A DNA stretch of 64,000 nt from Clostridia bacterium (GTDB taxonomy: Bacteria; Bacillota; Clostridia; Christensenellales; DTU072): contig JAFQOO010000007.1 in assembly GCA_017403145.1 (NCBI GenBank), positions 142,889 through 206,888 on the forward strand, given 5' to 3'. The translations under genes and the position numbers were made by a program. The notes beneath the pieces were generated by a model. That model made no database searches. It was not told the origin of the DNA and worked only from the letters and a program-made list of their open reading frames with translations. Positions 2 to 63,717 of this stretch are shown one piece after another; positions within the stretch are counted from its first letter, which is position 1, and each line of letters begins with the position of its first letter.

Positions 2-1122
2 ACCATTATCTACTCCGTAGATATCAATGGTATAATTGCTCCCGTTGATGGTGAAATCCACGATATTAGCACTATAACCGTCAATACCGAAGGTATATTA
101 GGCTTTGAAGCAATACAATGGTGCAAGTCATCAAGCAATACTGTTCTAAATCCCGGTGTTGCTTTTGTTGCAGGTCAGGCATATTATCTGAATATTAAGT
201 TTGAGGTTGCAGAGGGATACGTGCTCAATCGTTCTAATAGTCCTTATCATGGGGATATAACGATAAATGCCGAGGCTCCCTATACGAGCATGACATCAAT
301 GAATAACTTTTTCTTCCGTCTTATCTATACAGCAGCCAACCTACCGGTTGTTTCATTTGATGCAAACGGCGGTGGCGGTGAGATGACTGCTATTCCAGAT
401 GTTAAAGGCGACTATGAACTTCCTACATGCTCTTTTACTGCACCTAAGGACCATTACTTTAAGGCATGGGCTATTGGGGCGGTTGACGGACCCCAAAAGA
501 AGGCTGGTGAAACCATCACCATCAGTAGTGATACAACTCTTTATGCAATTTGGGGTGAATATACTACTATAAACACCGTTAATATTACAGGCATAATTGC
601 TCCCGTTGATGGTGAAATCCACGACATTAGCACTATAACCGTCAATACAGAAGGTATATTGGGCTTTTCCGCAATACAATGGTGCAAGTCATCAAGTAAT
701 ACTGTTCTAAACCCCGGTGTTGCTTATATTGGTGGTCAGGCATATCATCTGAATATCAAGTTTGCACTTGCAGAGGGGTATAGACTCAATACTCTCTCAA
801 ATAGTCCTATTCATGCGGATATAACGATAAATGCCGATGCTCCCTTTGCTAGCATGGAATCAAATAATAACTTTTTCTTCCGTCTTAAATATACGGCAAC
901 CAATCCTTCCACCGTATCCTTTGATGCAAATGGTGGCACAGGCTCAATGGCACCCGCAATAGACCAATATGGTCCCTATGAACTACCTTCTTGTGCCTTT
1001 ACCGCTCCTAGTGAAAAGCAATTTAAGGCTTGGGCAATCGGCTCTTTAGAGGGCGAACAAAAGGCACCCGGCGAGCAAATCACAGTTACCGATGACGTAG
1101 TTATCTATGCTATTTGGAAGGA
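2..1122 (+). repeat. Intragenic tandem duplication with a period of 561 nt (187 aa).
   Basis: attgctcccgttgatggtgaaatccacga occurs at nt 35 and again at nt 596. The flanking sequence (GIIAPVDGEIHDISTITVNTEGILGF..IQWCKSSSNTVLNPGVA...) is repeated with few substitutions. Confidence 0.85.
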
Positions 1123-1984: not shown

Positions 1985-2175
1985 TAGGCATTAAACAATT
2001 ACCCCTTGCCTTTCGGGGCAAGGGGAAAGCAAACGGAGATAACAATAAGAAAAAATCATGAAATGTCTTAATAACGTTTTTAACGACACATGTAATGGTT
2101 ATCCGTTTGGGCGCAAAAGAATAAACAAAACACAAAAACGGCGCGGCGAAAACCGTCCGCGCAAAGGAGAATAGT

Positions 2176-5100
2176 ATGACACAAACAAAAAAAGGGTTTT
2201 TAGCAGGGCTTATTGTTTTGGCGATGGCGCTTGCCTTGGCGTTCAGCTTTGCGCTCGTGCCAAGCGCCCACGAAAGTGCGTATGCGGATACTTTGCCTGC
2301 ACTCTCAAACGTGCAACTGGTTGGTGATACCCTCAGTTGGGACGCGTTTACAGGCGCAACCGAGTATCAGGTTCAGATGGTTGGCAATGGCGGAAACGGT
2401 TCTCAATACTACACAACCAATTCGGCAGACCTAAGTGCGCTTGCAGCCAACTACCACTTTGAAACTGGCACATACAATTGGTCTGTATATGCAGTGGATG
2501 AGCATGACAATCAGATTTCTTTGACGTCAACAAGCAATGCGGGCTATAGCGTTTATCCCGAATATGACTACAACGTCTCGTATGCTCAGTATTCGTATAC
2601 AAACACACAAGCGAGACTCTCGACGCCTACAGGACTTGAGTGGAATCACACAACTCTTATGTGGGATGGCGTTGATGGGGCATGGACTTATAGCTTGACT
2701 GTTTATGAGGCAGTGGGAGACGCCTTCGTGACTCAAGAGAATATTTTCAGCGGAACGAGCTATTCTTGGACAGGCTTTAAAACTGATACGTCCTATTATT
2801 TCACAATTAAAGCCAATGCTCCATTTGGCGGAGAGTATTGCAACAGTCTTGTAGCAACGAGTGGCACGCACACTTATGTAAGCGTTGTAGCAGACCTTGG
2901 CAGCCACGTGTCTATATCAAACGGTCAACTCAGCATTTCGGACGTTGAAGGGCTTGATAACTGCAGTTATGGTATATGGTCATCCGATCGCACGAGCAAA
3001 GAATTCGGCAGTGGTTCCAACGTGGATTTGCCAATAGACCTTTATACCGAATTTGCATCTTTTGAGGTTCCTGACGGCACTTATGATATTAAAATCGAGG
3101 TTTACAATCAATACAACGAGCCGCTCGCACCTGTCTATTATTATGACGATTGGGTTTATGACAGTTCACTCGCTCCGCAAGTGCTTACAGGCACCGTGAC
3201 CGTCACAGGTGATTTGGAATACGGAGAGACCCTCACGGCGACCGTCACAGACACCAACAACACGGGCACTTTGAATTATAGGTGGTATCGCAGTGATCCC
3301 CTTGAAGATTGGGTTATTCTTCAAAACGGAACGAGCAACACGTTTACGCTCACCACGCCGTGTATTGGCAAGAGCATACTTGTTATTGTCACAAGTAGCG
3401 TAGAATTGAATCAGATTCAGAGCGCAGAAACGGACACCGTTGGTGCAGGTGCTGCTGCGGTGGAAATCATCTCCGTCGGTGGCAATCCTGTGACTGCGGA
3501 ATTGGGACCGGGTGAGTTTACCAACGGTTCCTTCCCGATGGGACACGTAGGCACACCGTACAGCGCACAACTTGTGGCTGAGGGCGGTTCCGGCAACTAC
3601 ACTTGGGAAGTCATCATCGGCAGTCTTGCTTCGGGCCTTTCACTCAATCCGAGCACAGGTATTGTCAGCGGCACTCCGACAGGCACCGCTACAGGTTCTA
3701 TCACTATCAAATGTACGGACGCAGACAACACGGAATTTTCTGACAACGTACAGTTGAACTTTGTCGTCTATGAAGACAGTTGGGTTCCAAGCATTGTGAC
3801 TACAACCGCTGACAACGCGGTCGTCGACCAGAGTTATGGCTTTGATTTGGTCGTGGAAAGCGGCATAAGTGCGTCTGTTGACTGGACTGTTGAGAGCGGC
3901 TCTTTGCCGACGGGCTTGTCTCTCGGCAAGAATGGCGCTCGGAACGGGTACCTATATGGAACACCGACGACAAAAGGCACGTATACCTTCACTTTGAAAG
4001 CCGCCAACTACGTTGGCTCTGACACACAAGAATACACTATCGTCGTTGACGAACTGTTGACTGTGTCCTATGTCGTGGCTAAATACTACCGCGGTGATGA
4101 GATTGCGCTCACGGCAAGTATCGGCAACGAAAACGTAGATTGGTCTATCGGTCACAACACGTCCGCTGCCACCGTCATCTCTTCTTCCGGTGTGCTTACT
4201 ATCGGCACAGACGAGGCTGCAACCGGTTCTTATATCGTCGTTTATGCAACTTCCAAGACCAACTCAAACAACGTTGGACAAGAGTCGGTTTACTTTACAC
4301 CAAAGACGGCTTATTCCATCACGGTCACGGGTGGCACGGCAACCGACTCTTTGGCAAATCCGATTGCAAAAGCGGCGGAAGATGAAAACGTTTATATTGT
4401 AGCTCCTGAACTCGCGGGCAAAGAGTTCCGTGAATGGACGGTTGAGGCGGGTAGTGCGGATGTGACGCTCGACGGCGAAAACAATTCGAGTACGTTCTTT
4501 ATTATGCCCGCGGGCAACGTCATTTTGAAAGCCAATTATAATACGATTATCGACAGCGTTTCGGCAACGTTTGATGCCCCAGTCAACGGTCAACATATCG
4601 ACCAGACTCTCACAACGGGCAGTCCCAATTATACGGCTACCCTCACGAGGGTTTGGCAGGGCGCAGGTTTTAAGTCTTTGACCGAAACGATATACGAAAC
4701 GGGCAAAGAATATGCTTTCTACGTTCAATTTGCCCCTGCCTCGGGCTACGTTCTTGTCCCTAATAATCAGTTGTCCGTGACTTTGAACGGCAGGGCACTC
4801 AACTTCGACGATGACTACATCGGGTCTTACTCCGCTTGGATGATAGCACTCACCGCTGTCTCCGAAGAGATTCCGCACTTTGCAGTTACCGTGACAAACG
4901 GTATCGCAAGCGCGTCTCTTGCTCAAGAGAACGACGTCATCACAATCACAGCCAACGCTCCCGCAAGCGGGTTCGTGTTTGACAAGTGGACGACGGAAGA
5001 CGGCGTTACCTTCGCTTCCGAAACGTCTGCTTCTACAACGTTCGTTATGCCTGCAAAGGCAGTCACGGTGAGCGCAACCTACAAGGCGATTCCGCAATAC

Positions 5101-6096
5101 ACCGTCACTTTCGGCGCAGGCGAGGGTACGGGCTCTATGGCAAGCGAACTCGTCAATGAAAACAGTACGTTTGAACTTCCTGCCAATTTGTTCGTTGCTC
5201 CTGCAAACAAAGAGTTCAAGGCTTGGTCTGTCGGTGGCGTCGAAAAGAACGTCGGCGACGAAATCACCATAACCGCCGACACCACGGTCACCGCCGTTTG
5301 GCAGTTTATCAAAGTCACGGTCTCCTTTGTTGCTGGCGAGGGCACGGGAACGATGGATAGCGTTCAAGTAGACAAAGGCTCTTCCTATACGCTCCCCGTA
5401 AACGGCTTTACTGCACCTGACGGCAAGCGCTTTAAGTCTTGGAGCATCGGTGGCAACGCAGTTGCTGTGGGCGCTTCTATCATCATCAACAACGCAACAA
5501 CAGTCACCGCGGTTTGGGAAGACCTCCCAACTATGCACGCCGTCTCGTTCAACGCAAACGGAGGCACGGGCTCCAAGGCAGCTGAACAGGTCGAACACGG
5601 TACCTACTTCACGCTCCCTGCAAATCCCTTTACGGCTCCGACCGGCAAAGTGTTTGCAGGTTGGGCATTCACGGCAAACGGCTCCAAGATTGAAGCAGCA
5701 ACGATTCAAGTCAACAACAACGTGACGCTCTTCGCTCTTTGGAAAGACGCGGAATCCGCTCCTGGCAATCCTGGCAATCCTGACGAACCTGGCAATCCTG
5801 GCAATCCTGACGAACCTGGCAATCCTGGCAATCCTGACCAACCTGGCAATCCCGATACTACTCCCGAAGTAGAAGGTGAAGACGAGGCAGGACTAAGTGG
5901 CGGTGCTATCGCAGGCATCGTCATCGGCTCGGTAGCCGGTGCGGCAGCCCTTGGATGTGGCGGTTTTGCAATCTTCTGGTTTGTCGTAAAGAAAAAGAGC
6001 CTAGCAGAGCTTCTTGCAATCTTCAAGAAAACTCCCAAAGCAACTCCTAACACAACTCCCGATATTCCCACGGGCAACGACGATATAGCCGAATAA
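2176..6096 (+). CDS. Large cell-surface protein: signal peptide, Fn3-like and putative Ig (He_PIG-like) domains, four Listeria-Bacteroides repeats, a PGNPGNPDE linker and a C-terminal TM anchor.
   Basis: RBS aaaggaga lies upstream. The N-terminus is MTQTKKGFLAGLIVLAMALALAFSFALVPSAHESAYA (signal peptide). GTPYSAQLVAEGGSGNYTWEV..LPSGLSLNPSTGIVSGTPT is typical of the putative Ig domain. Repeats of the type TFGAGEGTGSM...FELPANLFVAPANKEFKAWSVG...ITADTTVTAVW are present. The C-terminal TM is followed by KKKSLAELLAIFKK. Stop is TAA. Confidence 0.9.
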   Translation: MTQTKKGFLAGLIVLAMALALAFSFALVPSAHESAYADTLPALSNVQLVGDTLSWDAFTGATEYQVQMVGNGGNGSQYYTTNSADLSALAANYHFETGTYNWSVYAVDEHDNQISLTSTSNAGYSVYPEYDYNVSYAQYSYTNTQARLSTPTGLEWNHTTLMWDGVDGAWTYSLTVYEAVGDAFVTQENIFSGTSYSWTGFKTDTSYYFTIKANAPFGGEYCNSLVATSGTHTYVSVVADLGSHVSISNGQLSISDVEGLDNCSYGIWSSDRTSKEFGSGSNVDLPIDLYTEFASFEVPDGTYDIKIEVYNQYNEPLAPVYYYDDWVYDSSLAPQVLTGTVTVTGDLEYGETLTATVTDTNNTGTLNYRWYRSDPLEDWVILQNGTSNTFTLTTPCIGKSILVIVTSSVELNQIQSAETDTVGAGAAAVEIISVGGNPVTAELGPGEFTNGSFPMGHVGTPYSAQLVAEGGSGNYTWEVIIGSLASGLSLNPSTGIVSGTPTGTATGSITIKCTDADNTEFSDNVQLNFVVYEDSWVPSIVTTTADNAVVDQSYGFDLVVESGISASVDWTVESGSLPTGLSLGKNGARNGYLYGTPTTKGTYTFTLKAANYVGSDTQEYTIVVDELLTVSYVVAKYYRGDEIALTASIGNENVDWSIGHNTSAATVISSSGVLTIGTDEAATGSYIVVYATSKTNSNNVGQESVYFTPKTAYSITVTGGTATDSLANPIAKAAEDENVYIVAPELAGKEFREWTVEAGSADVTLDGENNSSTFFIMPAGNVILKANYNTIIDSVSATFDAPVNGQHIDQTLTTGSPNYTATLTRVWQGAGFKSLTETIYETGKEYAFYVQFAPASGYVLVPNNQLSVTLNGRALNFDDDYIGSYSAWMIALTAVSEEIPHFAVTVTNGIASASLAQENDVITITANAPASGFVFDKWTTEDGVTFASETSASTTFVMPAKAVTVSATYKAIPQYTVTFGAGEGTGSMASELVNENSTFELPANLFVAPANKEFKAWSVGGVEKNVGDEITITADTTVTAVWQFIKVTVSFVAGEGTGTMDSVQVDKGSSYTLPVNGFTAPDGKRFKSWSIGGNAVAVGASIIINNATTVTAVWEDLPTMHAVSFNANGGTGSKAAEQVEHGTYFTLPANPFTAPTGKVFAGWAFTANGSKIEAATIQVNNNVTLFALWKDAESAPGNPGNPDEPGNPGNPDEPGNPGNPDQPGNPDTTPEVEGEDEAGLSGGAIAGIVIGSVAGAAALGCGGFAIFWFVVKKKSLAELLAIFKKTPKATPNTTPDIPTGNDDIAE
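5761..5853 (+). repeat. Perfect or near-perfect 27-nt tandem repeat (about 3.4 copies) encoding PGNPGNPDE.
   Basis: cctggcaatcctggcaatcctgacgaa occurs at 5761 and 5788. At 5815 the copy has one change (gaccaa). A partial unit starts at 5842. Confidence 0.95.
5965..6050 (+). repeat. Copy of the TM and cytoplasmic-tail part of the shared anchor cassette. It matches 10445-10530.
   Basis: tttgcaatcttctggtttgt(c/a)gtaaagaaaaagagcctagcagagcttcttgcaatcttcaagaaa(a/g)ctcccaaagcaactcctaa: 86 nt with 2 mismatches. Confidence 0.9.
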
Positions 6097-6160
6097 TTTA
6101 ACTTAACTTATGCCCCTTGGTACTGCCAAGGGGCAAAAACTCTTATAAGGAGGTAAAATT

Positions 6161-9100
6161 ATGAATACGAAACTAAAAACGTTTTCAATTTGCATCTTAT
6201 TAGCGTTTGCAGTTCTTGTTGGAATATTGGCGCTGGATGCTCCTTTAACTGCTCAAGCAGAAACACCAGCAGGCGTTTACGTCGGTGATGTTTATCTTAG
6301 CTCCGGCAATTATCTTCCCTCCGGCTCTGAAGTAGCAGTAGATGAAAAGCCCGAGGGTGGATATGCTTACTTTGATAATGCCGGCCTCGTACTAAAAGAT
6401 TACGTATACGATGATTGGGGCTATGAAGAAAGCCAAAACAACTTCTATTTAGTCTATGCCGATGGCGATTTGAACGTTTATTTGGAGGGCGAAAATAGTC
6501 TTTTAGCTTACTCTTCTCCAAATGCCGATTTTACCGGAATTTACGTAGAGAATGGTTCTTTGAACATAAAAGGGCCCGGTAAACTAACGATTGATGCAAG
6601 CACGCCTATTTACGTTAACGGTGGCGATATATCTATTGAGGGTGGTCGTCTTAATCTTACCAATCGCGGAAACCACTATGGTATGTTTGCTAATGGTGGT
6701 AGCATAAGCATTAGTGGTGGTATTCACTCAATTACCGGTTTCTATGGCGCGGTATATGCTAATGCCGGTACCACTATGAGTGGTGGCTCACTTACCGCAA
6801 CCGGTGATAATAATGCTATTGACGGTGCTTTTACTATGACCTACGGTAGCTTGCTAGCCATTGCTACGGGTGACGGTGGAACCGCCTTTGGTACGGGTGC
6901 AAGCGCTATCATAGATTTTTCTTCTTTAACTAACGCTTCTGCCTTTGGCTATGATAACGTTGAAGGTAATAGTGCCGCGGTTTACGACAATGCGGACAAA
7001 GCCTACTACAAGCGCGTATTTGTGAAGCCCACGTTACATAACGTTTGGGTGGGTGGCACACAACTATCCGACACTAATATGTCTACCGAGGTATTCTTCG
7101 AGCCTCTTTCACGCACGCTAACCTTGACTGATTATGAGTGCGTTGAAACGTCGGGCTATGCCTATTCCGGAGAAGCTAAGGCACTCGTGTATTCCGAGGA
7201 TGACCTAAATATTGTTCTTTCCGGCGAAAACACTTTGACTGCAAAGGAAGGGGAAGAGGGCATAAGACTAGCAGATGGACGCCTTCTCACCATTGATACA
7301 GCTGAAGGCGAAACAGGCGTACTTAACGTATCAGGCGCCTATGGTATCGGTGCAGTTAGCGAAATCAAGGGTGGCAAAATTATCGTTGCGGGTACCGAAA
7401 CAGCAATGATTGCATCCCTTGGACAAAGCGCAGCTCCAGACCTTCGTTATTATTACGAAACTCCCTACGTGAGAGTATCTGGAAATGCAAGCGGTTCCGC
7501 GTGGACGTTAAATTACGATGCGACCAAGATTGATGAATACAAGTATATTTACTTTGCGGAAGGCGTAATGGTAGAGTACTATGTCGATAATGTTCTAAAG
7601 TCAAGCGGAGCAGAGGAAAAAGGCGCGGAGTATCAATTGAAAACCTGTCGTTTTGAAATACCCACGGGATATACCTTTGGTGGTTGGGGACTAGGTTCTG
7701 CCGACAGTACCACCGTTTATGGAGAATCCGACTACATAGAACTTACCGAAGACGTTGCCTTCCACGCTGTACTAAAGCAACTGGGAAAGGTATACGTTTA
7801 TTACCCTTCAAACAGTTCTAATGAGGCAATACTTTACGAACTTACTTATGGTACGCACTCCCTTGATTTTATAGACGATGACTTTACTCCTCCCGAAGGA
7901 CTGGAAATCAAAGGCTTTACCTTGGGATGGGTTATGGGTGAAAGCGTTACCGAGATAGAGGTTAGCGAATATCCCAAATATCTATATGCAGAGTTGGGAG
8001 CAGAAGCAGGCGTTGAGTTTTACGATTTGTACGTGGGCGGTATTGCGGTAACGAATGCGAACAAAGACGATATTTTGGAAGATGGCACGACTGCTTACAA
8101 TCCTACCACCAATACTCTTACCTTGACTGAAATGGAGCTTGCTGAAGAAGATACCATTTACTGGGGCTATGATGGTTATGCTATTTTTGCTAAAGGTGCA
8201 CTAAACGTTGTACTTGTAGGGGAAAACGGTATCGTCACAAGTAGCGAAGACGAGGTTTATGGTATCATAGCAAACGAACTTAATATCTCTACTATTGATG
8301 ATGGTTCTCTATCTATAGAGTCTTATTATGCAATATATGCAGAAATAGTTACCATAAAAAGTGGTGTCTACCATCTAATAAGCAATAATCCAATCACGGG
8401 GGATTCCGTAACAATAAACGGTGGCGAAATCGCTATGGAGGAACGCACTGGGGATGAGGGACAGACCGGTATTGACGCAGGGATTCTAACCATCAATGGT
8501 GGCGTGATAGATATTAAGTATTTCGATAGTTGCATTTATTCGTATGGAACCATTATAAAAGACGGTACCATTACGATTATTACATATACGGAAGGAATAT
8601 TTGCCTATGCCGGGCTCATAATTGAAGGCGGAACGATAAATATTTACGGCATGGACGGTAATGGTGGCGCTGGTATTTTTGTAGAAAAAGGTGATATTTC
8701 TATTACCGGGGAAGATACAAGTGTAGCAATCTATGGTTTTGAAGTGGGAATTTATCAATCCGAGGAGGATGGTAACGCTGTTACGATAGAAGATGCTACT
8801 GTGATAATTGACGACACTCTCCCCATTACTTCCTATATGTTAGCACCACCCCCACCTGTTACTAAGGGTATGATGGTAAATGAATTAACCTTAAATAACG
8901 CAAAGTTGGACGTTAGCGCATTGGTTGGTTTGAGGGTGTTCAATGGACTATCTTTTACCGATTCCGAAGTTAATATAACGTCCGTTGCAACGGATTCTAT
9001 GGATGAGCCCGCAGGTATCCAAGCTGTAGAAGATTCCGTTATTACTAATTCCAAAATAAATATCAATATAGAGGCCGAACTATGTGCTTATTCTGTTGCA

Positions 9101-10579
9101 ATTGAAACTCGTTCATATGGAGCCGGAACTTCTGCTGATTTGACCATAACCAATAGCGATATTACCATTACGGTAACTACCAGTACCTTTGCCGGTGGTA
9201 TTTGTGCTTTAGGCAATCTCGTTATTGACGGATGTAATGTTGATATTGCGTTAGATTCTAATACAACGATTGCTCTTGGTTGTAACTACGAAGATGAGGA
9301 CTCTTATATTACTATAAAAGACTCTACGGTTGTTCTTTCATCCACTCGTGGAGGATTGACCGCTGGTAATCTTGAGTTGGATTACAAGAACGATGCTTTC
9401 AAGGTTTGGGCATCCGAAAACGCTGACGGAAGTGATATGGCACTCGCTCCCAATATCGAAGTATTTGAATACGCCAATTATTGCTTTGTACACCCCATAT
9501 ATGAAATTATTTTGGATGGTAACAACGATAGTGAAACCGACACTATAACGGAGCAATACGGCACTTATAGGCTCCCCACTTGCACGTTTACTGCTCCCGA
9601 AAACAAGGAGTTCTTGGGTTGGGCAGTTGGCACAGTAGAGGCTACTCCCCTCAAGCAAGCAGGTGATGAAATTGAAATTTCTTCCGACCTAACCATTTAT
9701 GCAATTTGGAAAGTGAAAGACCACGTTCACGCTCTAACTCCCGTTTCCGCAACTCCCGCAACTTGTACGGAAAATGGTAACGTCGCATATTACACTTGTA
9801 ATTGCGGACAATGGTTTAGCGATAGCGAAGGTAATAACCTAATTTCAGACCACAGCTCGGTAGTAATTCCCGCAACCAACCACAACTACGAAGGCGTAGC
9901 TTGGTCAAGCGATGCAAACGAGCACTACAAGGTATGTAAGAATAATAATTGCTCTGAAAAGGGAGAGGTAGCAACCCATACTCCCAATATAGCAAATCCC
10001 ACCGAAGAGGAAGCAAAGGTATGTACCGTATGCGGGTACGTAATTGCTCCTGCACTAAACCACGTTCACGTTCTAACGCCCGTAGTAGCGAAGGATGCAA
10101 CTTGTACGGAAAATGGTAACGTTGCATACTATACCTGTACTTGCGGACAATGGTTTAGCGACGAAAACGCAACCAACCTAATTGCTAACCACGATAGTGT
10201 AATCGTAGTAGCAAGTGGACACACCGATGCAAACACCGATGGCACTTGTGATACTTGCGGATGGGTAGACCCGAACTTTACTCCCATTGTACCCGGTCCC
10301 GGCGGAGGTGAAGGAACTCCCGCACCCACTCCCGACAACACTCCCGAAGTAGAAGGTGAAGAGGAAGCAGGACTAAGCGGTGGTGCAATTGCAGGCATTG
10401 CAGTAGGCGCAACCGTTGGCGCAGTAGGACTAGGAGCAGGTGGCTTTGCAATCTTCTGGTTTGTAGTAAAGAAAAAGAGCCTAGCAGAGCTTCTTGCAAT
10501 CTTCAAGAAAGCTCCCAAAGCAACTCCTAATGGTACTAACGAGAACCTAGGCGGTGGCTCGGGCGATATTACCGAATAG
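6161..10579 (+). CDS. Large cell-surface protein: signal peptide, long predicted beta-helix-like repeat region, Listeria-Bacteroides repeats, a duplicated Cys-rich module and a C-terminal TM anchor.
   Basis: RBS aaggagg lies 7 nt upstream. The signal peptide is MNTKLKTFSICILLAFAVLVGILALDAPLTAQAE. There are recurrent G-rich turns (GGDISIEGGRLNLTN, GGSISISGGIHSITG, INGGEIAMEE, INGGVIDIKY, EGGTINIYG). A B-repeat reads YRLPTCTFTAPENKEFLGWAVG...LTIYAIW. HVH.LTPV.A..ATCTENGNVAYYTC.CGQWFSD occurs twice. The anchor cassette is shared with genes 1 and 2. Stop is TAG. Confidence 0.9.
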   Translation: MNTKLKTFSICILLAFAVLVGILALDAPLTAQAETPAGVYVGDVYLSSGNYLPSGSEVAVDEKPEGGYAYFDNAGLVLKDYVYDDWGYEESQNNFYLVYADGDLNVYLEGENSLLAYSSPNADFTGIYVENGSLNIKGPGKLTIDASTPIYVNGGDISIEGGRLNLTNRGNHYGMFANGGSISISGGIHSITGFYGAVYANAGTTMSGGSLTATGDNNAIDGAFTMTYGSLLAIATGDGGTAFGTGASAIIDFSSLTNASAFGYDNVEGNSAAVYDNADKAYYKRVFVKPTLHNVWVGGTQLSDTNMSTEVFFEPLSRTLTLTDYECVETSGYAYSGEAKALVYSEDDLNIVLSGENTLTAKEGEEGIRLADGRLLTIDTAEGETGVLNVSGAYGIGAVSEIKGGKIIVAGTETAMIASLGQSAAPDLRYYYETPYVRVSGNASGSAWTLNYDATKIDEYKYIYFAEGVMVEYYVDNVLKSSGAEEKGAEYQLKTCRFEIPTGYTFGGWGLGSADSTTVYGESDYIELTEDVAFHAVLKQLGKVYVYYPSNSSNEAILYELTYGTHSLDFIDDDFTPPEGLEIKGFTLGWVMGESVTEIEVSEYPKYLYAELGAEAGVEFYDLYVGGIAVTNANKDDILEDGTTAYNPTTNTLTLTEMELAEEDTIYWGYDGYAIFAKGALNVVLVGENGIVTSSEDEVYGIIANELNISTIDDGSLSIESYYAIYAEIVTIKSGVYHLISNNPITGDSVTINGGEIAMEERTGDEGQTGIDAGILTINGGVIDIKYFDSCIYSYGTIIKDGTITIITYTEGIFAYAGLIIEGGTINIYGMDGNGGAGIFVEKGDISITGEDTSVAIYGFEVGIYQSEEDGNAVTIEDATVIIDDTLPITSYMLAPPPPVTKGMMVNELTLNNAKLDVSALVGLRVFNGLSFTDSEVNITSVATDSMDEPAGIQAVEDSVITNSKININIEAELCAYSVAIETRSYGAGTSADLTITNSDITITVTTSTFAGGICALGNLVIDGCNVDIALDSNTTIALGCNYEDEDSYITIKDSTVVLSSTRGGLTAGNLELDYKNDAFKVWASENADGSDMALAPNIEVFEYANYCFVHPIYEIILDGNNDSETDTITEQYGTYRLPTCTFTAPENKEFLGWAVGTVEATPLKQAGDEIEISSDLTIYAIWKVKDHVHALTPVSATPATCTENGNVAYYTCNCGQWFSDSEGNNLISDHSSVVIPATNHNYEGVAWSSDANEHYKVCKNNNCSEKGEVATHTPNIANPTEEEAKVCTVCGYVIAPALNHVHVLTPVVAKDATCTENGNVAYYTCTCGQWFSDENATNLIANHDSVIVVASGHTDANTDGTCDTCGWVDPNFTPIVPGPGGGEGTPAPTPDNTPEVEGEEEAGLSGGAIAGIAVGATVGAVGLGAGGFAIFWFVVKKKSLAELLAIFKKAPKATPNGTNENLGGGSGDITE
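10229..10530 (+). repeat. Shared 3' anchor cassette in the third surface-protein gene.
   Basis: 10229-10478 matches 1697-1946. 10445-10530 matches 5965-6050. Confidence 0.9.
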
Positions 10580-10609
10580 TATATAAGGTTTGGTGTAGGG
10601 ACCAAAAAA

Positions 10610-10637
10610 ATAACACTCCGTTTGGAGTGTTATTTTT
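10610..10637. terminator. Bidirectional intrinsic terminator between convergent genes.
   Basis: Stem ataacactcc (10610-19), loop gttt, stem ggagtgttat (10624-33). It is flanked by an A7 run upstream and a T4 run downstream. Confidence 0.8.
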
Positions 10638-10644
10638 ATATCGG

Positions 10645-10866
10645 TTATTTTCTTAAAACTAGAATATATAAAATGGAGTATACGATTGCCACTCCGTTTA
10701 TAATAGCAAGCGTGGTGCATAACGTGGAAAATATTGCCGGCAGGAAGGCTATTCCTCCTAATACCGAAGAAAGAGTTATACCGAGGTATATTGTGAATGC
10801 AAGGTCGCAAGCAATCGCTATACCGCCGATAATCAATAGAAGTATAAAGAAGAAATCACGTCTCAT
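10645..10866 (-). CDS. Small hydrophobic membrane protein (about 73 aa, 2-3 TM segments); last gene of the operon.
   Basis: Sequence is MRRDFFFILLLIIGGIAIACDLAFTIYLGITLSSVLGGIAFLPAIFSTLCTTLAIINGVAIVYSILYILVLRK. The ATG at 10866 overlaps the upstream stop as TAATG (the track start at 10872 is also possible). It is followed by the terminator at 10610-10637. Stop is TAA. Confidence 0.6.
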   Translation of the reverse strand: MRRDFFFILLLIIGGIAIACDLAFTIYLGITLSSVLGGIAFLPAIFSTLCTTLAIINGVAIVYSILYILVLRK

Positions 10867-13106
10867 TACCAATATACCCCCGAATTCTTGATGCTTTCGA
10901 AATCTGTTGGTGTGGCACCTTCGTCAGAGCCCTCCGCATAATATCTTCTAACAACCATATTAAAGAAGGGGTCGAGCTCGTAAACGTAATAGTTACCAAC
11001 GCCAACGTTATATCCTTTATCATTCACGTAGTAGTTGTTGGACCACTCGTATATGGGTGATGCTACCGCTTGACCGCTATAAGCTTGCACTTCGGTAAAA
11101 CCTATAATTCCACCCGCTATAACAGAGCCTTCCTCGGATGAGGTTATAAAGCTACCTGTGTTAAACGAGTTTTTAACGGAGCCTTTAAGGTAGGCACTTA
11201 TACCGCCTACAAAGACCGCTTTATTGTCTTTTTGGGTGGTGTTAGCGGTTATATTGCCACTGTTTTGACAGTTGAGTATAATTGCGTTTTCGTGGTTATT
11301 TAGTCCAACAGCACCGCCTACGAAGGCTATGCTACCCGACGAGGTTTGGCTATTGACGTTACCCGTGTTTTTAAAGTATGATAACGTTCCGTTGTTAACC
11401 GCAAAGCCACCGCTTACGTGATGCTCAAAGGAGTCTTCTTTAGCGGTTGTAATGGTTGCGGATACGTTGCCTGTATTAGTGGTATTCGTTACAGTTCCCT
11501 CGTTTACGTAACCAATTCCACCAACGTTCAAAATACCATATTCTAGGGTGCCCGTAATATTAGCACTGTTTAGGCAATTGTCTATCGTGCCGGAGTTTAC
11601 CGTGGTAACTCCACCAAGTATAATAGCGGTATTTTGTTGGTCTTGGGTGGTAGTAGCCGATATTGCACCGTGGTTGGTAGCAAGGCTTATCTTACCGTAG
11701 TTACGCATAGTAATACCGCCAACGTTTGGCGACCAATATAGAGAGGGGGTTGTTTGGGTTAAGGTTGCATAGTTGTTTACCGAGGTAATAGTAGCTTTAT
11801 CGGCATTCTCAACAGCTATACCGCCAACGTCAACTGTGTTGGAGTTTAGAGTGGAGCCTTCTAGAACGTTCGAGTTTCTAATAGTGGCGCTGTTTTTAGC
11901 GACTATTCCGCCAAATACCGCATCTCCGTAATTAGTGGCTTGGTTTTGGTTGCTTCCTTGACTTGCATCGCCCGTTATATCCAAGTTATATTTAACGTTA
12001 CAGCCATCTATTATACCTCTATTTTCGTATAATAGGGTTCCTAAGAGCGTCTCTTCCGATGCCGAAACTTCGTTTATAACGCCATTAACGTTTACCTTTA
12101 TTCCACTAAAATTGCCCGTTGAAAGGTAGCTTACCAGTGCGCCTTCCGATTTAGCGGTTAGGTTTATATCGGGGAAAGAAAACTCTACGTTTTCTATTTT
12201 ACCACTTACCGTTTTAGCAAAATATGCACTATTCAAAGGCATATCGCTAGCGAGGTCGGTAAACACTATTTTGGCGTTAACAATGCTTCCGCTAAATTTA
12301 TCAATAAAGGCAGAGCTTCTATTTCCGCTAATTGTTATGGTGCGTCCTTGACCGTCAAGGTGTATCTTGAACTCCGTTTTATCCCACTTGGTGGCATCTA
12401 TAGTTAGGTCGTTTTCTAGGGTGTAGTAGCGGTTTGTTTCATCTAGCGCAAGCTCTAAAAGGTGGGTGGAAAGAATTTTAATAGGGGCGTCGGTAGTGCC
12501 ATCACCACCTAGAATATGTGGAACTATTTCCATCGAAACAATGGCACCGCTAAGGAAAACTACGCATACTGCTACAATGCAAAGTACCGCTATAAGCTGT
12601 GTAAAACTGGGCTTTTTTGAACGAGGAACAATGATAGAATTGCCACTTTTCTTAACTTCCAAATTGTGTGTCAGGCGGTAAATTTTCCTTACTCTATCTA
12701 GATTTTCCTTTTGATTTAGATGGGCGCTTACACCTTGCGAGTCGCATAGTATCGCACTCATTTCAATAGGGGTTATAATTTGTCCGTTTAGATATAACCT
12801 TAGCGATTTTTTTGCTTTCTTTTTAAAAAGTAAATAGTCCTCGAAATTTTCTTCCACTTGAACGTATTCTTTTATGCTGGAAAGTGCTTTTTCGTACTTT
12901 CTTATTACCTTATAAGAGGAATACAAGTATGCTAGTGAAAGGATGGGGAAACGTCCAAACGATAGGGAAGCACTCTCCTTGTCTACAAGGAGTTTTTCGA
13001 GCGTTTTTACGTCGTTATTTATGGTGGCAAGGCGTATTAGCTCCCATTTATCTTGCGCGCTCTTAGTATACGAGGCGTTTTTGTCCGTTACCAAACGATT
13101 ATCCAT
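10866..13106 (-). CDS. Single-pass membrane protein: about 175-aa cytoplasmic N-domain, one TM, then an extracellular GLUG-motif-like beta-helix repeat domain.
   Basis: The TM is FTQLIAVLCIVAVCVVFLSGAIVSMEIV. It is followed by at least 9 repeats of the type (V/F)GGI(A/V).N.G.I.N..N.G.(I/V): FGGIVAKNSATIRNSNV, VGGIAVENADKATITSVNN, VGGITMRNYGKISLATNHG, LGGVTTVNSGTIDNCLNSANI, VGGIGYVNEGTVTNTTNTGNV, VGGAVGLNNHENAIILNCQNSGNI, VGGISAYLKGSVKNSFNTGSF. I prefer the start at 13106 (MDNRLV...) because it forms TAATG with the upstream stop. The track start at 13142 is the alternative. Confidence 0.75.
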   Translation of the reverse strand: MDNRLVTDKNASYTKSAQDKWELIRLATINNDVKTLEKLLVDKESASLSFGRFPILSLAYLYSSYKVIRKYEKALSSIKEYVQVEENFEDYLLFKKKAKKSLRLYLNGQIITPIEMSAILCDSQGVSAHLNQKENLDRVRKIYRLTHNLEVKKSGNSIIVPRSKKPSFTQLIAVLCIVAVCVVFLSGAIVSMEIVPHILGGDGTTDAPIKILSTHLLELALDETNRYYTLENDLTIDATKWDKTEFKIHLDGQGRTITISGNRSSAFIDKFSGSIVNAKIVFTDLASDMPLNSAYFAKTVSGKIENVEFSFPDINLTAKSEGALVSYLSTGNFSGIKVNVNGVINEVSASEETLLGTLLYENRGIIDGCNVKYNLDITGDASQGSNQNQATNYGDAVFGGIVAKNSATIRNSNVLEGSTLNSNTVDVGGIAVENADKATITSVNNYATLTQTTPSLYWSPNVGGITMRNYGKISLATNHGAISATTTQDQQNTAIILGGVTTVNSGTIDNCLNSANITGTLEYGILNVGGIGYVNEGTVTNTTNTGNVSATITTAKEDSFEHHVSGGFAVNNGTLSYFKNTGNVNSQTSSGSIAFVGGAVGLNNHENAIILNCQNSGNITANTTQKDNKAVFVGGISAYLKGSVKNSFNTGSFITSSEEGSVIAGGIIGFTEVQAYSGQAVASPIYEWSNNYYVNDKGYNVGVGNYYVYELDPFFNMVVRRYYAEGSDEGATPTDFESIKNSGVYW

Positions 13107-13819
13107 TATTTCTTGATTTTTACCTTCCTTTCGCTTGCCCATTTATCAAGGATGTCGTATAGGTATGCTTCGTTAACGTCGTCTTTTTCTATGATTTTAC
13201 GTAGCAGTTGATTGGTTTCTTTATAGGTGGCGGTTAATTGCTCGATAGAGGTCTTTTCTTGTGAAATTCTATTGAGCATAGCTTCGCTACCACTCTTAAC
13301 AGCATTTATTTTTGCATTGGAATCGGCTACCTTTTCCGCAACGTCCTTGTTGATAAACTCGTTCATACGTCTAACGTTATCGTCATAGTTTTCAAGGGTG
13401 CGTTGTAGCTCTTTAACGTTGTAGCTCTTACGCTTTTCATCAAGGATGCTCTCTAGCTTGCCAAGTTGAGTTTCCGCCTTGCTTTCAAGGGAAGAAATAT
13501 TTTCAAGTTTATCGGCAACCTTTTCGACGGTATTCAATAGCTTGGTAATATCCTCGGTATATTTGCTACTCATTTTCATAAACCTATCTATTTGGCTAGC
13601 AAGGTCGGTTGCCTTTTCGGCTTGTCCCGATAGCGTGCGATATATCTTTTCAAGGTTAGTTTTAGCATCACCGCTAAAGGCTTGGTTTAGCCTATCGATG
13701 TCTCCTTGTAAACCGGAATAGGTTGTTATAAAATCGTTAAGATTACTTTGTATGGGTGTGAGCAAATCACGATATCCCTTGAAAGTTTCAATCAGCATTT
13801 TTACTTCGTTATTATCCAT
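13106..13819 (-). CDS. All-alpha coiled-coil protein of 237 aa with no TM segment and unknown function.
   Basis: The sequence is rich in heptads and in K/E/L/N (..LESKAETQLGKLESILDEKRKSYNVKELQRTLENYDDNVRRMNEF..). The start ATG overlaps the helicase stop (TAATG) and the stop overlaps the next start (TAATG). Confidence 0.7.
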   Translation of the reverse strand: MDNNEVKMLIETFKGYRDLLTPIQSNLNDFITTYSGLQGDIDRLNQAFSGDAKTNLEKIYRTLSGQAEKATDLASQIDRFMKMSSKYTEDITKLLNTVEKVADKLENISSLESKAETQLGKLESILDEKRKSYNVKELQRTLENYDDNVRRMNEFINKDVAEKVADSNAKINAVKSGSEAMLNRISQEKTSIEQLTATYKETNQLLRKIIEKDDVNEAYLYDILDKWASERKVKIKK

Positions 13820-16230
13820 TACCTTTTCTCCTTTAATGCTTTAAGCTGAGAGCCAAGTGTTTTTTGTTTTTCTTTTAGGTCGTTTAAATCACGTTTTAAC
13901 GTATCGATTATCAGTTTTTTTGCAACGTCGTTGCCATCTAGCTCGGTATAAAATCTTACTATATCGTAGTCGAGCGCACCGCCATCGTTTTTTAGAGATG
14001 CTTCCATAAACTCAATAAGCTTTAGGTCGCCGGAAAGACGGAAGGTTTCTTTTGCATCCTCGTATAAACCCTTTTCCCAATATCTGATTCCCGCTTCTCG
14101 GTAGTTACCATAGCGAACGTATTTTTCGTTTATCTCTATGCGGTCGAGTGAGGCCTTGCGCTTTAGTTCGTCGTCAAGGTTGAGTGCCGTGATGCGTGCG
14201 TTCTCGTATTGACCAAGAGAAATAAACTTGGATATTCTGCTTAGGAGCTCCTCTTCTTCAACCTCTTTGATAGATAAGATGCTATCAAGATTACGTATAG
14301 CATCTTTAACGTTTAACAAAGTGAATTGATTGCGGAAAAAGTTGTTAAAAGAGGGCACTCTTCGTTCTTCGTAGACGTATACGTTGGATTTTGCGCGCGA
14401 CACCGCGACGTAGAAAAGGTTAAAGTAATAACGATAAACGCTATTCTCGTCTGCGGTCTTTCGGTTAACCGTAATGCGGTCTAGGGTTTCCCATTTGTCA
14501 TAGTTTGCCGAAAGTACGTTATATAAAATTACCGTATCTCGTTCAAGACCTTTTATTTCGGAAACGGTCAAAATTTCGCGGTTACCCAAAATTTTGCGCA
14601 TAGCAACTTTTTCGCGTAGGGAGGGAACGATTAGGGTAAAATCCCCATATTTTTTGGCTTTGAGTTCTTCAATAAAGCCTCTTCCTTCTACCATAACCGC
14701 TTGTGTTTTTAGGTCGGTATCCACGCTCACACCCTTTAGTACAAAGTTGTGCGTACCAAATTTTTGAACGTTTATTTTACCAAGCTCCTCTATGATTTCG
14801 GTAATTTTTTTGGTATTACGATAGTTATTCTGTAGCTCTTTTACGTCGGTTAAATCTTCTTGATACATCAACCTCTTCAAGTAGGAAAAACTAAAGTAAG
14901 AGGGGTTTATCATTTGTAGAGCATCACCTACAGCAAAAAGCTTTCTGGTAATTTCGCTCATCAAGTGCAAGTTGATTTCCGTCATATCTTGCACCTCGTC
15001 CAGCACGATTAAAGAATAGGTGGGGAGCTTGTTTAGGTTCTTTAGTAGAGCGCGACTTATAATATTATTGTCGGTATAACCGCGCTTTTCCATATATATT
15101 TTGTAATCACGCGCAAGGCGATAGATAACCTCACATTCGGTGCGCGTAAAAGAGTTCGCACGCTTATCCATATATTCTTCGAGCGTGAGCATATCTTTAA
15201 CAGCGCTATGCGGTTCATAGGAGCCATAAATAGCACCGTATATTTCCTTATATATGACTTCGCCCGAAAGATTTTTTAGCTTTTGAACCTGTCCTTGCAC
15301 AAAGTTTTCCTTCAAATAGGTTCTGGTAAACAGCTCCTCGCCCGAAGGCGTGGCTGTTCCGCCGAGATACTTTTTATAAAGGTCCTCTATTAGATAATAG
15401 TCGACTTTTTCTAAAAGATATTTGTGTAGCACCTTTAGCTTTTCCAAAAGCTTAGCTTCTTCATCGACCTCAAGATATATGCCAAGACGATTTTCGATAG
15501 CGGTTTTTTTATCACCGATATAGGTAACCGATTTTTCTTCCATTGATTTTATGAGAGCGCCTACGGTATCGTTGAAGGCGTTGACCTTGGCTTGAGTATC
15601 AATAAGCAAACCACGAGAAAAGGTAGAATACATAAGTCTACCGCGATACTCTCTACAGCCGGCAAAAATAATTTTATCGATACAAACGTTGGTTTTGCCA
15701 CTGCCCGCAACACCTTGAACGAGCATATTTTTGTCCTCGGTTTCCACTATTTCCTTTTGCTTTTTGGATAGCATAGGGAAGCTCGCCTTATCGGTGCCTG
15801 CTACGCGATATATCTTTTTATAGTCGCTTTCTTTAACGTTAGAATGGGCTACGCTAAGCACACCCTCAAAGTTTTTTAGAGTTTCCAAGTAGTACAAAAA
15901 CCTACCATCGTTATATAAAATTTCTTCCTCGGTCGTATGGTATGCGGTGAAAATCAAGTCGTTTTTCTTTAGAAAATCGTGCTCTAAAAATGCACCGAGC
16001 GTAAAGTAAAAATCGTGTTTACCATATAGGCTTAGCTTGAACTCCTTGCCAACCTTTTGCAACTCCTTAGTAAAAGGCATAAGGCTTTCGGCAAGCTTAG
16101 AAAGGAATAAATCGTGGGAACGTATTTTACGCACGCTCAAATCACACCTTTCCGTTTTGTATACAGAGGTGTGGGCGGAAAGCACCGTCGTGCGCGTGGA
16201 TATTGTGATTTTTTTATTATACGCACCCAT
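13819..16230 (-). CDS. SF1 UvrD/Rep-like helicase (803 aa) with a C-terminal helical (TPR-like) extension.
   Basis: Walker A GVAGSGKT lies at 15691-15714. Motif II is SLIVLDEVQDMT, motif III FAVGDALQMI, motif IV NNYRNTKKI, motif V SEIKGLERDTVILYNV and motif VI LFYVAVSRAKSNVYVY. The roughly 130-aa C-terminus is helical-repeat-like (GQYENARITALNL...GNYREAGIRYWEKGLYEDAKETF). The start at 16230 has an AAGGA upstream; the alternative Met51 has no RBS. The gene overlaps the RF-like gene by 14 nt. Confidence 0.85.
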   Translation of the reverse strand: MGAYNKKITISTRTTVLSAHTSVYKTERCDLSVRKIRSHDLFLSKLAESLMPFTKELQKVGKEFKLSLYGKHDFYFTLGAFLEHDFLKKNDLIFTAYHTTEEEILYNDGRFLYYLETLKNFEGVLSVAHSNVKESDYKKIYRVAGTDKASFPMLSKKQKEIVETEDKNMLVQGVAGSGKTNVCIDKIIFAGCREYRGRLMYSTFSRGLLIDTQAKVNAFNDTVGALIKSMEEKSVTYIGDKKTAIENRLGIYLEVDEEAKLLEKLKVLHKYLLEKVDYYLIEDLYKKYLGGTATPSGEELFTRTYLKENFVQGQVQKLKNLSGEVIYKEIYGAIYGSYEPHSAVKDMLTLEEYMDKRANSFTRTECEVIYRLARDYKIYMEKRGYTDNNIISRALLKNLNKLPTYSLIVLDEVQDMTEINLHLMSEITRKLFAVGDALQMINPSYFSFSYLKRLMYQEDLTDVKELQNNYRNTKKITEIIEELGKINVQKFGTHNFVLKGVSVDTDLKTQAVMVEGRGFIEELKAKKYGDFTLIVPSLREKVAMRKILGNREILTVSEIKGLERDTVILYNVLSANYDKWETLDRITVNRKTADENSVYRYYFNLFYVAVSRAKSNVYVYEERRVPSFNNFFRNQFTLLNVKDAIRNLDSILSIKEVEEEELLSRISKFISLGQYENARITALNLDDELKRKASLDRIEINEKYVRYGNYREAGIRYWEKGLYEDAKETFRLSGDLKLIEFMEASLKNDGGALDYDIVRFYTELDGNDVAKKLIIDTLKRDLNDLKEKQKTLGSQLKALKEKR

Positions 16231-17173
16231 TGTTTTTGTTTTCCTTTATCAGCAATGGAGAGATTATTTCGTCAAGGTTGACACCCGTTGATGCCCTAAA
16301 AGGTATAGATAAATTCAACCTTAAATCACATAGTGTTTCTTTGTCGAAATCGTACAAACGTATTCTTTCGGTGCGTGATTTTTGGTAGGCGGATAGACGT
16401 TCTTTTTTTAGTAAACCTTGTTCTTTTGCTTTGTAGTAATCGTAAAGTCTAGAGCGCAAAACAAGGTGGGCACGGTTGCGGTTTTGCAGTTGAGAACGCT
16501 CTTCTTTACAAACTACAACTATACCGCTTGGTATATGCGTTAGCCTAACGGCTGTTGCAACCTTGTTTATATTTTGACCGCCGGCACCGGAAGAATGGAA
16601 GATATCGGTTTTCAAATCTTTATCGGAGATAATCACACTTACGTCATCCATAATTGGAGTAACGGAAACCCAAACATTGGAGTTCCCAATTTTACCGCCT
16701 GTGCTATGATGAGTTCCGGTTTCGCCTTTTAGCCTAAAATATGCACCTGCTCCGTCTATAGTTAGGGATATAAATTTATCCTCCCATTCGCATATGGAGA
16801 GTTTGTATCCTTTTTGTTTTGCATAGCTAGAGTATAGCCTAAAAAGCTCGTGGAGAAAGGGTAGACTTTGGGGGTTTTCGGCACGTAATTCTATTATCGC
16901 ACCGCGTTTATCTTGTTCGTTTTTTGGCAGCAGTTCTTGGGTAAGACAGGTGTACAAAGCGTTTGTTTCTTCTTGGTCGCCTAGCTCGATTGCTATCTTG
17001 AGAGCCTCACCGAGGATATAGCTTTCTTCAAGGGAGTTTTTTTCATCGGCATATCTCAAATACAAACGATTGTCGGCAATAATTTCGGGACTTTCAAGAT
17101 ATTCCACAAGTTGCTCGTATCTTGTGGAAATCGGTTGATATCTATTAAGAAGTCCTTCTATTTTTTTATCCAT
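16217..17173 (-). CDS. Divergent class-I peptide chain release factor (RF1-family) paralog. The GGQ motif is present and the stop-codon recognition loop is deleted.
   Basis: SSGAGGQNINKVATAVRLTHIPSGIVVVCKEERSQLQNR contains GGQ at 16574-16582. The C-terminus, RIRLYDFDKETLCDLRLNLS, is RF1-like (compare IRTYNFPQ.RVTDHRI). Canonical RF1 has HRVQRVP.TESQGRIHTS where this protein has HHSTGGKIGNS (16679-16711). The conserved GTGG(D/E)EA is replaced by ENPQSLP. Length is 318 aa against about 355 for RF1. Confidence 0.85.
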   Translation of the reverse strand: MDKKIEGLLNRYQPISTRYEQLVEYLESPEIIADNRLYLRYADEKNSLEESYILGEALKIAIELGDQEETNALYTCLTQELLPKNEQDKRGAIIELRAENPQSLPFLHELFRLYSSYAKQKGYKLSICEWEDKFISLTIDGAGAYFRLKGETGTHHSTGGKIGNSNVWVSVTPIMDDVSVIISDKDLKTDIFHSSGAGGQNINKVATAVRLTHIPSGIVVVCKEERSQLQNRNRAHLVLRSRLYDYYKAKEQGLLKKERLSAYQKSRTERIRLYDFDKETLCDLRLNLSIPFRASTGVNLDEIISPLLIKENKNNGCV

Positions 17174-17179
17174 ATTGTT

Positions 17180-17188
17180 ATTATATCA
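17180..17188 (-). promoter_or_regulatory. Extended -10 (TGaTATAAT) placed 6 nt upstream of the RF-like ATG; candidate leaderless promoter of the operon.
   Basis: The minus strand reads TTTTTGATATAATAACAATATG. There is no purine-rich RBS between the -10 and the ATG at 17173. The -35 is weak (TTTATT at a 17-nt spacing). Confidence 0.45.
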
Positions 17189-17244
17189 AAAATAGATAAT
17201 TAAATAAAGTATTTTATATATTTAATTACGCGCGCAATTATATC

Positions 17245-30640: not shown

Positions 30641-30698
30641 TTTTAGAGCAACAAAAAAAGCCTTGTGAAAGCCGAGTCCCTACAAGGGATTCGGCAAC

Positions 30699-63607: not shown

Positions 63608-63717
63608 AGACGCCACCTTCCTTTTTTCTGGGGTGCTATTTTTTAGCGATTTTATTGGGAGCTTACGCACGTATACGTACAAACGCGCTCCTATGCGTGT
63701 GATATAAATATATGCAA

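Follow-up and report, generated by a model that had tools for sequence, protein, structure and literature searches.

A release-factor paralog without decoding elements, encoded with an SF1 helicase and a predicted membrane anchor: a possible translation surveillance system of uncultured gut Clostridia

Introduction

What use could a bacterium have for a release factor that has seemingly lost the means to read stop codons, and why is such a protein encoded in one operon with a helicase, a coiled-coil protein and two membrane proteins? These questions are raised by a cassette of five genes in the DNA of a Clostridia bacterium (DTU072; assembly GCA_017403145.1, contig JAFQOO010000007.1, positions 142,889 to 206,888). 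In this stretch of 64,000 nucleotides (nt), referred to as a whole as the window, the cassette occupies positions 10645-17173 of the minus strand (Table 1); it is compact (6.5 kb) and well defined, and its hosts are uncultured. The first gene encodes a paralog of release factor 1 (RF1), here called the RF-like protein, and is followed by the genes for a superfamily 1 (SF1) ATPase/helicase, a coiled-coil protein, a type-II membrane protein with a predicted beta-helix, and a small peptide with two transmembrane (TM) segments. Our analysis confirms that this five-gene operon is a real feature.

Paralogs of bacterial release factors that act independently of stop codons, namely ArfB and PrfH, define ribosome-rescue pathways. 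According to a survey of the release-factor superfamily published in 2019, bacteria have only RF1, RF2, ArfB and PrfH, and the Firmicutes are without ArfB (PMC6514570); a clostridial substitute would thus fill a gap. If the reading developed below is true, a further RF1-derived family with conserved partners of its own would stand beside these proteins. The survey does not list the cassette, and literature searches on a linkage between a release-factor paralog and a helicase and on defence of a release-factor type yielded no description of it. Judged by Pfam, NCBIfam, PADLOC and the literature, the combination of helicase, RF-like, coiled-coil and membrane protein is an undescribed system, as an initial annotation made from the DNA sequence had supposed.

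Protein families were assessed with Pfam, the equivalog cut-offs of NCBIfam and PADLOC-DB 2.0, and structures were assessed through AlphaFold2 (AF2) models and Foldseek. For the census of related loci, metagenomes were scanned with a profile of the coiled-coil protein, which gave 50 further loci; the census with hidden Markov models comprises 57 loci in all. Census counts refer to assessable loci only, and their denominators accordingly differ from gene to gene (52, 51, 34 and 30).

A release-factor-like protein that keeps GGQ and lacks the decoding elements

The RF-like protein is neither a canonical RF1 nor a PrfH nor an ArfB; each of these identities was considered and rejected because the protein fails all three curated cut-offs. 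It scores 200 bits against the prfA equivalog model TIGR00019 (cut-off 423.25), 69 bits against the prfH model TIGR03072 (cut-off 166.65) and 42.7 bits against the ArfB model NF006718 (cut-off 100), the last match being confined to residues 179-212. Its C-terminus, LLIKENKNNGCV, is no basic tail, domain 1 (PCRF) is present, and no rtcB gene, the partner expected of a PrfH, was found in any neighbourhood examined.

An alignment with canonical RF1 proteins and solved RF1 structures reveals what has been lost. A deletion of seven residues takes out VQRVPxT, and with it the PxT loop; KIGNS stands in the position of RIHTS, and AENPQS in that of GAGGEEA at the GxGGxEA helix tip; domain 1 is about 20 amino acids (aa) shorter than that of canonical RF1 in this sub-clade. 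The GGQ motif is kept, with 38 of the 46 surrounding residues identical to canonical RF1, and the GGQ domain is the best-conserved part of the protein (72% versus 43-64% for the other domains), which argues for selection on an activity at the peptidyl-transferase centre. The same pattern of a retained GGQ motif and a missing decoding loop is found in all 30 helicase-linked RF-like genes inspected, so that the description of the protein in the initial annotation, as an RF1 paralog still able to release peptides and blind to codons, holds for the family in so far as motifs can tell. Several family members are reduced to 175-217 aa, and the sequence matches of the window protein in the PDB include C12orf65 (1.6e-11). 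Taken together, strong purifying selection on GGQ and the loss of every decoding element argue for a codon-independent action at the peptidyl-transferase centre, a prediction made from sequence.

Among release factors, UAG is read only by RF1, and TAG is the stop codon of 11 of the 33 window genes; hence a canonical prfA gene must presumably exist elsewhere in the genome, which would make the RF-like protein an extra paralog. When a genome collection was scanned with the RF-like alignment, the result was crowded with ordinary RF1 genes, which also match the pattern AGGQN[IV]NK; the matches listed are canonical prfA genes, and the cassette was present at 0 of 80 genome-collection loci among them. 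The remaining 22 genes of the window end in TAA. The sole open reading frame (ORF) that ends in TGA lies antisense inside another gene, and no in-frame TGA was found in any long ORF of the window. A reassignment of this stop codon, or a loss of RF2, tied to the RF paralog was considered and rejected, as cassette-bearing relatives do use TGA stops (2/18, 1/16 and 2/13, or 5 of 47 genes). The lack of TGA stops in the window looks like strong avoidance of this codon, not like recoding.

A conserved gene order with an invariant core

Dozens of divergent genomes share this gene order, which is more than chance. RF-like relatives with 65%, 59% and 43% identity all reside in the same five-gene cassette, divergently oriented to an adjoining aroC-SDR-LMWPc gene group. 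At three distant loci of the helicase family, the order is again RF-like gene, helicase gene, a gene for a protein of about 235 aa and one for a protein of about 630-670 aa, followed in two of the three by a gene for a 73-aa product. In the census, the membrane-protein gene follows the coiled-coil gene at all 52 loci and the helicase gene precedes it at 50 of 51; the RF-like gene is present at 29 of 34 loci, and the two-TM peptide was detected at about 21 of 30. The possibility, allowed for in the initial annotation, that the five genes co-occur only in this genome therefore does not hold. These counts also shift the weight within the cassette: the invariant core consists of the helicase, the coiled-coil protein and the membrane protein, to which most members add the RF-like protein and the peptide as accessories. 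The idea of the RF-like protein as the hub is not supported by this pattern. At two RF-less loci, L102 (7080-15421) and L103 (7092-15130), a gene for a PadR-family regulator lies directly upstream of the helicase gene, in the place of the RF-like gene.

Several loci depart from the common layout in other ways. At L102 and L103, the gene that comes immediately after the peptide gene encodes a full-length RelA/SpoT protein. Where the peptide is missing, another membrane protein follows: at L086, a 228-aa HlyIII/PAQR-type protein (15112-15798) whose gene overlaps the end of the membrane-protein gene, and at L127 (13123-13800) and L131 (12808-13485), a hydrophobic protein of 225 aa that resembles MgtC when judged by eye. 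At L089 (2161-7569), the RF-like gene is about 4.4 kb away from the helicase gene, and two genes on the opposite strand (849 and 386 aa) lie between them, an arrangement that looks like an insertion within the operon. At L124 (7079-10538), the coiled-coil and membrane-protein genes are present, but the 7.9 kb upstream of them contain genes for an aspartate kinase and an aspartate-semialdehyde dehydrogenase in place of a helicase or RF-like gene.

An SF1 helicase with family-specific extensions

The motifs GVAGSGKT (Walker A), DEVQD (Walker B), GDALQ (motif III), EIKGLER (motif V) and VAVSRA (motif VI) are invariant in the 39 homologous helicase sequences compared, and so are many residues of the N- and C-terminal extensions. 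The AF2 model of the helicase (mean predicted local distance difference test score, pLDDT, 84.7) shows an N-terminal alpha/beta domain (residues ~1-150), the SF1 core, helical repeats (~641-760) and a long terminal helix (768-802), which bears out the UvrD-like helicase with a helical-repeat tail that had initially been annotated. Motifs and fold together identify the protein as an SF1A helicase. It is not an ortholog of UvrD, PcrA or HelD by the standards of NCBIfam, whose uvrD and helicase IV models it matches with 24-29 bits against cut-offs of 543-1144 (about 1000 for uvrD). In sequence it is remote from everything solved, with a PDB match (E = 7e-4) over only ~90 residues.

In Foldseek, the helicase model reaches E-values of about 1e-11, and these are equal for UvrD/PcrA, Upf1/Ighmbp2/nsp13 and HelD. 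An attempt to assign DNA or RNA as the substrate in this way is not decisive, given the equal E-values; the TM-scores alone favour UvrD. The family is wide: among its 871 hits, many are full length, with 45-50% identity, and all of its named members come from metagenome-assembled genomes of uncultured Clostridia.

The coiled-coil protein, the membrane protein and the peptide

For the remaining three proteins, searches of Pfam, NCBIfam and PADLOC gave no specific family model. The coiled-coil protein is the most conserved protein of the cassette (53-88% identity across the family) and is surpassed only by the flanking aroC. It has no TM segment by hydropathy, and it ends in a motif, D-x-W ... 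RKVKxKK, whose D225 and W227 are invariant in 18 sequences down to ~21% identity. Among 1.84 billion cluster representatives, searched exhaustively, there were only 75 hits, of which about 20 are full length; all of the latter measure 232-247 aa and none is fused to another domain. Its best 60 profile matches in the PDB are exclusively generic coiled coils, chemoreceptor domains and designed helical bundles, in keeping with the initial assignment as a coiled coil. Homology to Psp- or Lia-type proteins was considered and rejected, having neither family nor PDB support.

The membrane protein has one TM segment (hydropathy, residues ~168-199), and the basic residues on the N-terminal side of this segment place its N-terminus in the cytoplasm. 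An in-frame ATG at 13142 is an alternative start, which would lengthen the protein to 758 aa. According to the AF2 model (pLDDT 87.9), a cytoplasmic helical-repeat domain (~15-147) is connected via the TM helix to a right-handed beta-helix (~209-735). The top Foldseek matches of the protein are the GLUG-bearing beta-helices of IgA1 proteases (3n6z, E = 6.7e-4; 7jgj; 6xja), and lyases, adhesins and tailspikes are among the further ones. The initial description as a type-II membrane protein with a GLUG-type beta-helix thus stands with regard to the modelled fold, which resembles the IgA1-protease GLUG domains, and falls short with regard to the family: the window protein does not match Pfam GLUG (PF07581) even at E <= 10. 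Elsewhere in the family, the ortholog at L085 reaches E = 0.05, and the homolog P0263 carries a precomputed PF07581 annotation. The ectodomain evolves faster than the cytoplasmic domain, with distant members showing 23% identity in the former and 35% in the latter.

The peptide is translationally coupled to the membrane protein, and hydropathy predicts the two TM segments that had been noticed initially. Its orthologs are exactly 73 aa long in six lineages, with D21, P43, N57 and Y67 conserved.

Relation to known systems

From its sequence, the RF-like protein appears functionally closest to the PrfH/ArfB class and formally analogous to the eRF1-UPF1 pair, and it is a member of neither. PrfH, known from the PrfH-RtcB2 pair (PMC9304027, PMC6514570), is likewise a release-factor paralog that has kept GGQ but no longer reads stop codons normally, and its gene shares an operon with that of a partner enzyme. 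However, PrfH has about 200 aa, lacks domain 1 and spreads horizontally together with RtcB (PMC9304027, PMC6514570), whereas the RF-like protein is RF1-derived, usually keeps domain 1, has helicase, coiled-coil and membrane partners, and is inherited vertically. ArfB, ICT1 and mtRF-R (C12orf65) use the same GGQ domain for codon-independent hydrolysis of peptidyl-tRNA, but they consist of this domain and a basic C-terminal tail and act alone or with one small partner; the RF-like protein retains remnants of domains 2 and 4 and is devoid of the basic tail.

The ArfA-RF2, BrfA-RF2 and ArfT-RF systems offer a further likeness, in that the release factor of the cassette, too, may be licensed by a partner protein instead of a stop codon. 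These adaptors recruit the canonical RF2 or RF1 of the cell, whereas a non-decoding paralog is encoded beside its presumed partners in the cassette; no homology to ArfA, BrfA or ArfT was found. In eukaryotes, a protein with a release-factor fold cooperates with a helicase for translation surveillance in the eRF1-UPF1 (SURF) and Dom34/Pelota-Ski2-type systems, and UPF1 is among the Foldseek hits of the cassette helicase. The folds of the two kinds of release factor are unrelated (bacterial GGQ versus aeRF1), however, and the cassette helicase is nearer to UvrD/PcrA, which makes this likeness an analogy and not a homology.

With UvrD/PcrA/Rep and HelD, the helicase shares all SF1 motifs, and these enzymes provide its best structural matches; two of its parts are found in the cassette family alone, namely the alpha/beta domain at the N-terminus and the tail of helical repeats at the C-terminus. 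The IgA1-protease GLUG proteins that head the ectodomain matches differ from the membrane protein in possessing a protease domain, and an N-terminal TM anchor joined to a conserved cytoplasmic domain sets the latter apart.

A tentative function in the clearance of stalled complexes

We tentatively put first the reading that the cassette encodes a complex at the membrane for the clearance of stalled translation complexes, or coupled transcription-translation complexes, or nascent chains. Three features argue for an ATP-driven complex tethered to the membrane: the invariance of the ATPase, the scaffold-like character of the coiled coil, and the conservation of the anchor's cytoplasmic domain. 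In such a complex, the membrane protein and the peptide would serve as the anchor at the envelope, and the cytoplasmic domain of the former would form a scaffold with the coiled coil. The ATPase might move on mRNA, or on the DNA of a coupled transcription-translation complex, which it would strip or remodel, and the RF-like subunit could then enter the A site without codon reading and hydrolyse the nascent peptidyl-tRNA. It would probably be licensed by a partner protein and not by a stop codon, as ArfA licenses RF2.

A more specific version of this proposal is possible and, in our view, rather doubtful: a hitherto unknown system for translation surveillance in some Clostridia, tethered to the membrane, in which a dedicated, RF1-derived and codon-independent factor would work with an SF1 helicase and a surface-exposed beta-helix anchor and be expressed from a leaderless mRNA independently of Shine-Dalgarno pairing (see below). 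It would be a functional analogue, in bacteria, of the surveillance carried out by eRF1/Dom34 and their helicases. No counterpart has been described for the linkage of a peptide-release domain to a UvrD-like ATPase and a membrane complex. This linkage could show by what means gut anaerobes remove jammed complexes of translation or secretion, or it could represent a new coupling between envelope and translation.

Several points weigh against a function in the clearance of stalled translation. The large, fast-evolving ectodomain is given no clear role. The TM-scores of the helicase favour the DNA enzymes UvrD/PcrA (0.39-0.48) over the RNA helicase Upf1 (~0.28). Finally, the RF-like gene is dispensable in some lineages (it is missing from 5 of 34 loci), so that peptide release cannot be the core activity.

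Vertical inheritance and the case for defence

The RF-like factor and its neighbours had initially been read as a putative arrangement of sensor, transducer and effector that would fit either a conflict or defence module or one of the ribosome-rescue type. Of these two functions defence is the less likely, and ribosome rescue is plausible. The cassette sits beside aroC in relatives from 100% down to ~31% RF identity and diverges in parallel with its flanking genes: where the helicases are 65, 73, 50 and 48% identical, the SDR proteins are 61, 68, 54 and 49% identical. No relatives of the coiled-coil protein were found in 2.9 million viral contigs and no plasmid with a full-length helicase match, and matches to PHROG are limited to the generic release-factor and helicase families; an origin from a phage or plasmid was rejected on the first two of these grounds. 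The genes flanking the cassette are metabolic or encode surface proteins, and there is no defence island. The fixed site by aroC, the parallel divergence and the lack of viral and plasmid copies speak for vertical inheritance, as of a core function specific to the lineage, and not for a mobile defence island, and it is well supported that the cassette is a lineage-specific, vertically inherited operon of uncultured gut Clostridia.

It is against this background that an envelope-triggered defence or abortive-infection system has to be judged, a reading that we regard as unlikely. In it, the ectodomain would sense the adsorption of phages or damage to the wall, and the signal would be passed through the TM helix, the cytoplasmic domain and the coiled coil to the helicase, which would act on the invading nucleic acid, with the codon-blind release factor aborting translation throughout the cell. 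The ectodomain is indeed the fastest-evolving part of the membrane protein, and its fold is common to adhesins, tailspikes and IgA1 proteases; moreover, the role of an effector would suit a codon-blind release factor, given that such a factor would be toxic if unregulated. The helicase shows weak, partial matches to GajB models of Gabija (E down to 4e-16), and the coupling of a membrane sensor to a helicase effector gives the cassette a formal likeness to the architecture of Zorya. Membership in Gabija or Zorya was nevertheless rejected, given that neither GajA nor any homolog of ZorA-D, nor another defence partner, was found at the loci examined and that the matches cover only parts of the models. 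In PADLOC-DB 2.0, there is no family match for the RF-like protein, the membrane protein or the peptide, the helicase and the coiled coil give weak partial matches only, and there is no match at the level of a system; together with the inheritance just described, this counts against defence.

Alternatives on DNA and at the envelope

An activity directed at DNA would be a different kind of housekeeping, and we consider it quite unlikely. Here, the membrane-anchored, UvrD-like translocase would act on DNA that coupled transcription, translation and insertion hold at the membrane, and would clear this DNA of RNA polymerase or protein roadblocks; the RF-like accessory would free the nascent chains of attached ribosomes. 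UvrD/PcrA are the closest structures and HelD-RNA polymerase complexes are matched as well; the core persists without the RF-like gene, and inheritance is vertical and housekeeping-like. The genome also encodes very large secreted surface proteins, the kind of gene at which such tethering might be expected. However, a module for binding RNA polymerase cannot be recognised in the AF2 model of the helicase, which contains neither the N-terminal coiled coil of HelD nor the C-terminal Tudor domain of PcrA, and the ectodomain is again left without a role.

Improbable is a module for envelope stress or the cell wall akin to LiaI-LiaH-LiaG or Psp, with the helicase and the RF-like protein as add-ons for regulation or repair: the two-TM peptide, the ~235-aa coiled coil and the TM-anchored beta-helix mirror the Lia/Psp gene content (which we take as a lead only), and a PadR-family regulator precedes the RF-less variant, but none of the proteins matches PspA/IM30, LiaF or DUF4097 at E <= 0.01, the PDB matches of the coiled-coil profile are of a generic kind and include no PspA/Vipp1 structure among the best 60, and the helicase (50/51 loci) is as invariant as the trio and hence no add-on.

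Operon layout and expression signals

The features of the cassette are collected in Table 1. The initial annotation had described five packed minus-strand genes with a 14-nt overlap, three TAATG junctions and a shared 11-mer, a single extended -10 element upstream and a bidirectional terminator downstream, and all of these can be read directly from the sequence or, in the case of the terminator, are backed by its predicted stability. The RF-like and helicase genes overlap at 16217-16230, and independent support comes from gene calls on public contigs, in which the two products likewise have 318 and 803 aa and the genes overlap in the same way. The next three junctions are TAATG stop/start overlaps at 13821-13817, 13108-13104 and 10868-10864; the first two lie within the identical 11-mer TAATGGATAAT, which is why the coiled-coil protein and the membrane protein both begin with MDN.

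Table 1. Genes and signals of the five-gene cassette and its borders (window positions)
Feature	Position	Strand	Basis
RF1-derived release-factor paralog (RF-like protein), 318 aa	16217..17173	-	Pfam PCRF + RF-1
SF1 (UvrD-like) ATPase/helicase, 803 aa	13819..16230	-	Pfam UvrD-helicase, UvrD_C, AAA_19, Viral_helicase1
Coiled-coil protein, 237 aa, all-helical	13106..13819	-	Family comparison
Type-II membrane protein, 746 aa	10866..13106	-	AF2, Foldseek, hydropathy
Two-TM peptide, 73 aa	10645..10866	-	Hydropathy
Extended -10 promoter element, TGATATAAT	17180..17188	-	Read from sequence
Intrinsic terminator hairpin	10601..10645 (inner stem 10606-10637)	.	Fold -21.3 kcal/mol, z = -7.6
Near-palindrome AATTGCGCGCGTAATT, aroC/RF-like divergent intergenic region	17224..17239	.	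Window, L081, L082/L083

The end of the -10 hexamer is only 6 nt away from the ATG of the RF-like gene, and no Shine-Dalgarno sequence is present there; Shine-Dalgarno-like sequences precede most other genes in the window. A TGnTAnaaT box that ends 6-10 nt before the ATG of the RF-like gene is found in most of the related lineages examined. This spacing leaves no room for a Shine-Dalgarno sequence and implies a leaderless mRNA. The leaderless start and the overlapping downstream starts suggest that expression of the operon depends little on Shine-Dalgarno pairing, and in the proposed mechanism they would allow the operon to be translated in this way. Another gene of the window without a Shine-Dalgarno sequence, at 46457-47755 (+), has a TGTTATAAA box 8 nt upstream of its ATG and may represent a second leaderless transcript.

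None of 200 shuffled sequences folds as stably as the terminator hairpin. The hairpin lies between an A-run and a T-run and could thus terminate both convergent genes, namely the last gene of the cassette and that for a 1472-aa surface protein. The near-palindrome in the divergent intergenic region is conserved in the closest relatives and is perfect, in the form TTACGCGCGTAA, in L081 and L082; judged from sequence, it may be a candidate operator for one or both of the divergent promoters.

Neighbouring features of the window

Very large predicted surface proteins (587, 1306, 1472 and 3224 aa) that form a cluster are encoded at 221-10579 (+) and 54008-63682 (-). Those of 587 and 1306 aa carry Listeria-Bacteroides or InlB-type repeats, and the 1472-aa protein ends in a TM anchor. 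The surface-protein side of the cassette varies between relatives; the aroC side is conserved. At 30695-30771 (+), the window contains a Gut-1 RNA motif (Rfam RF01706), an orphan small-RNA motif whose name hints at a gut origin of this genome, with 51 bits against a gathering score of 50.

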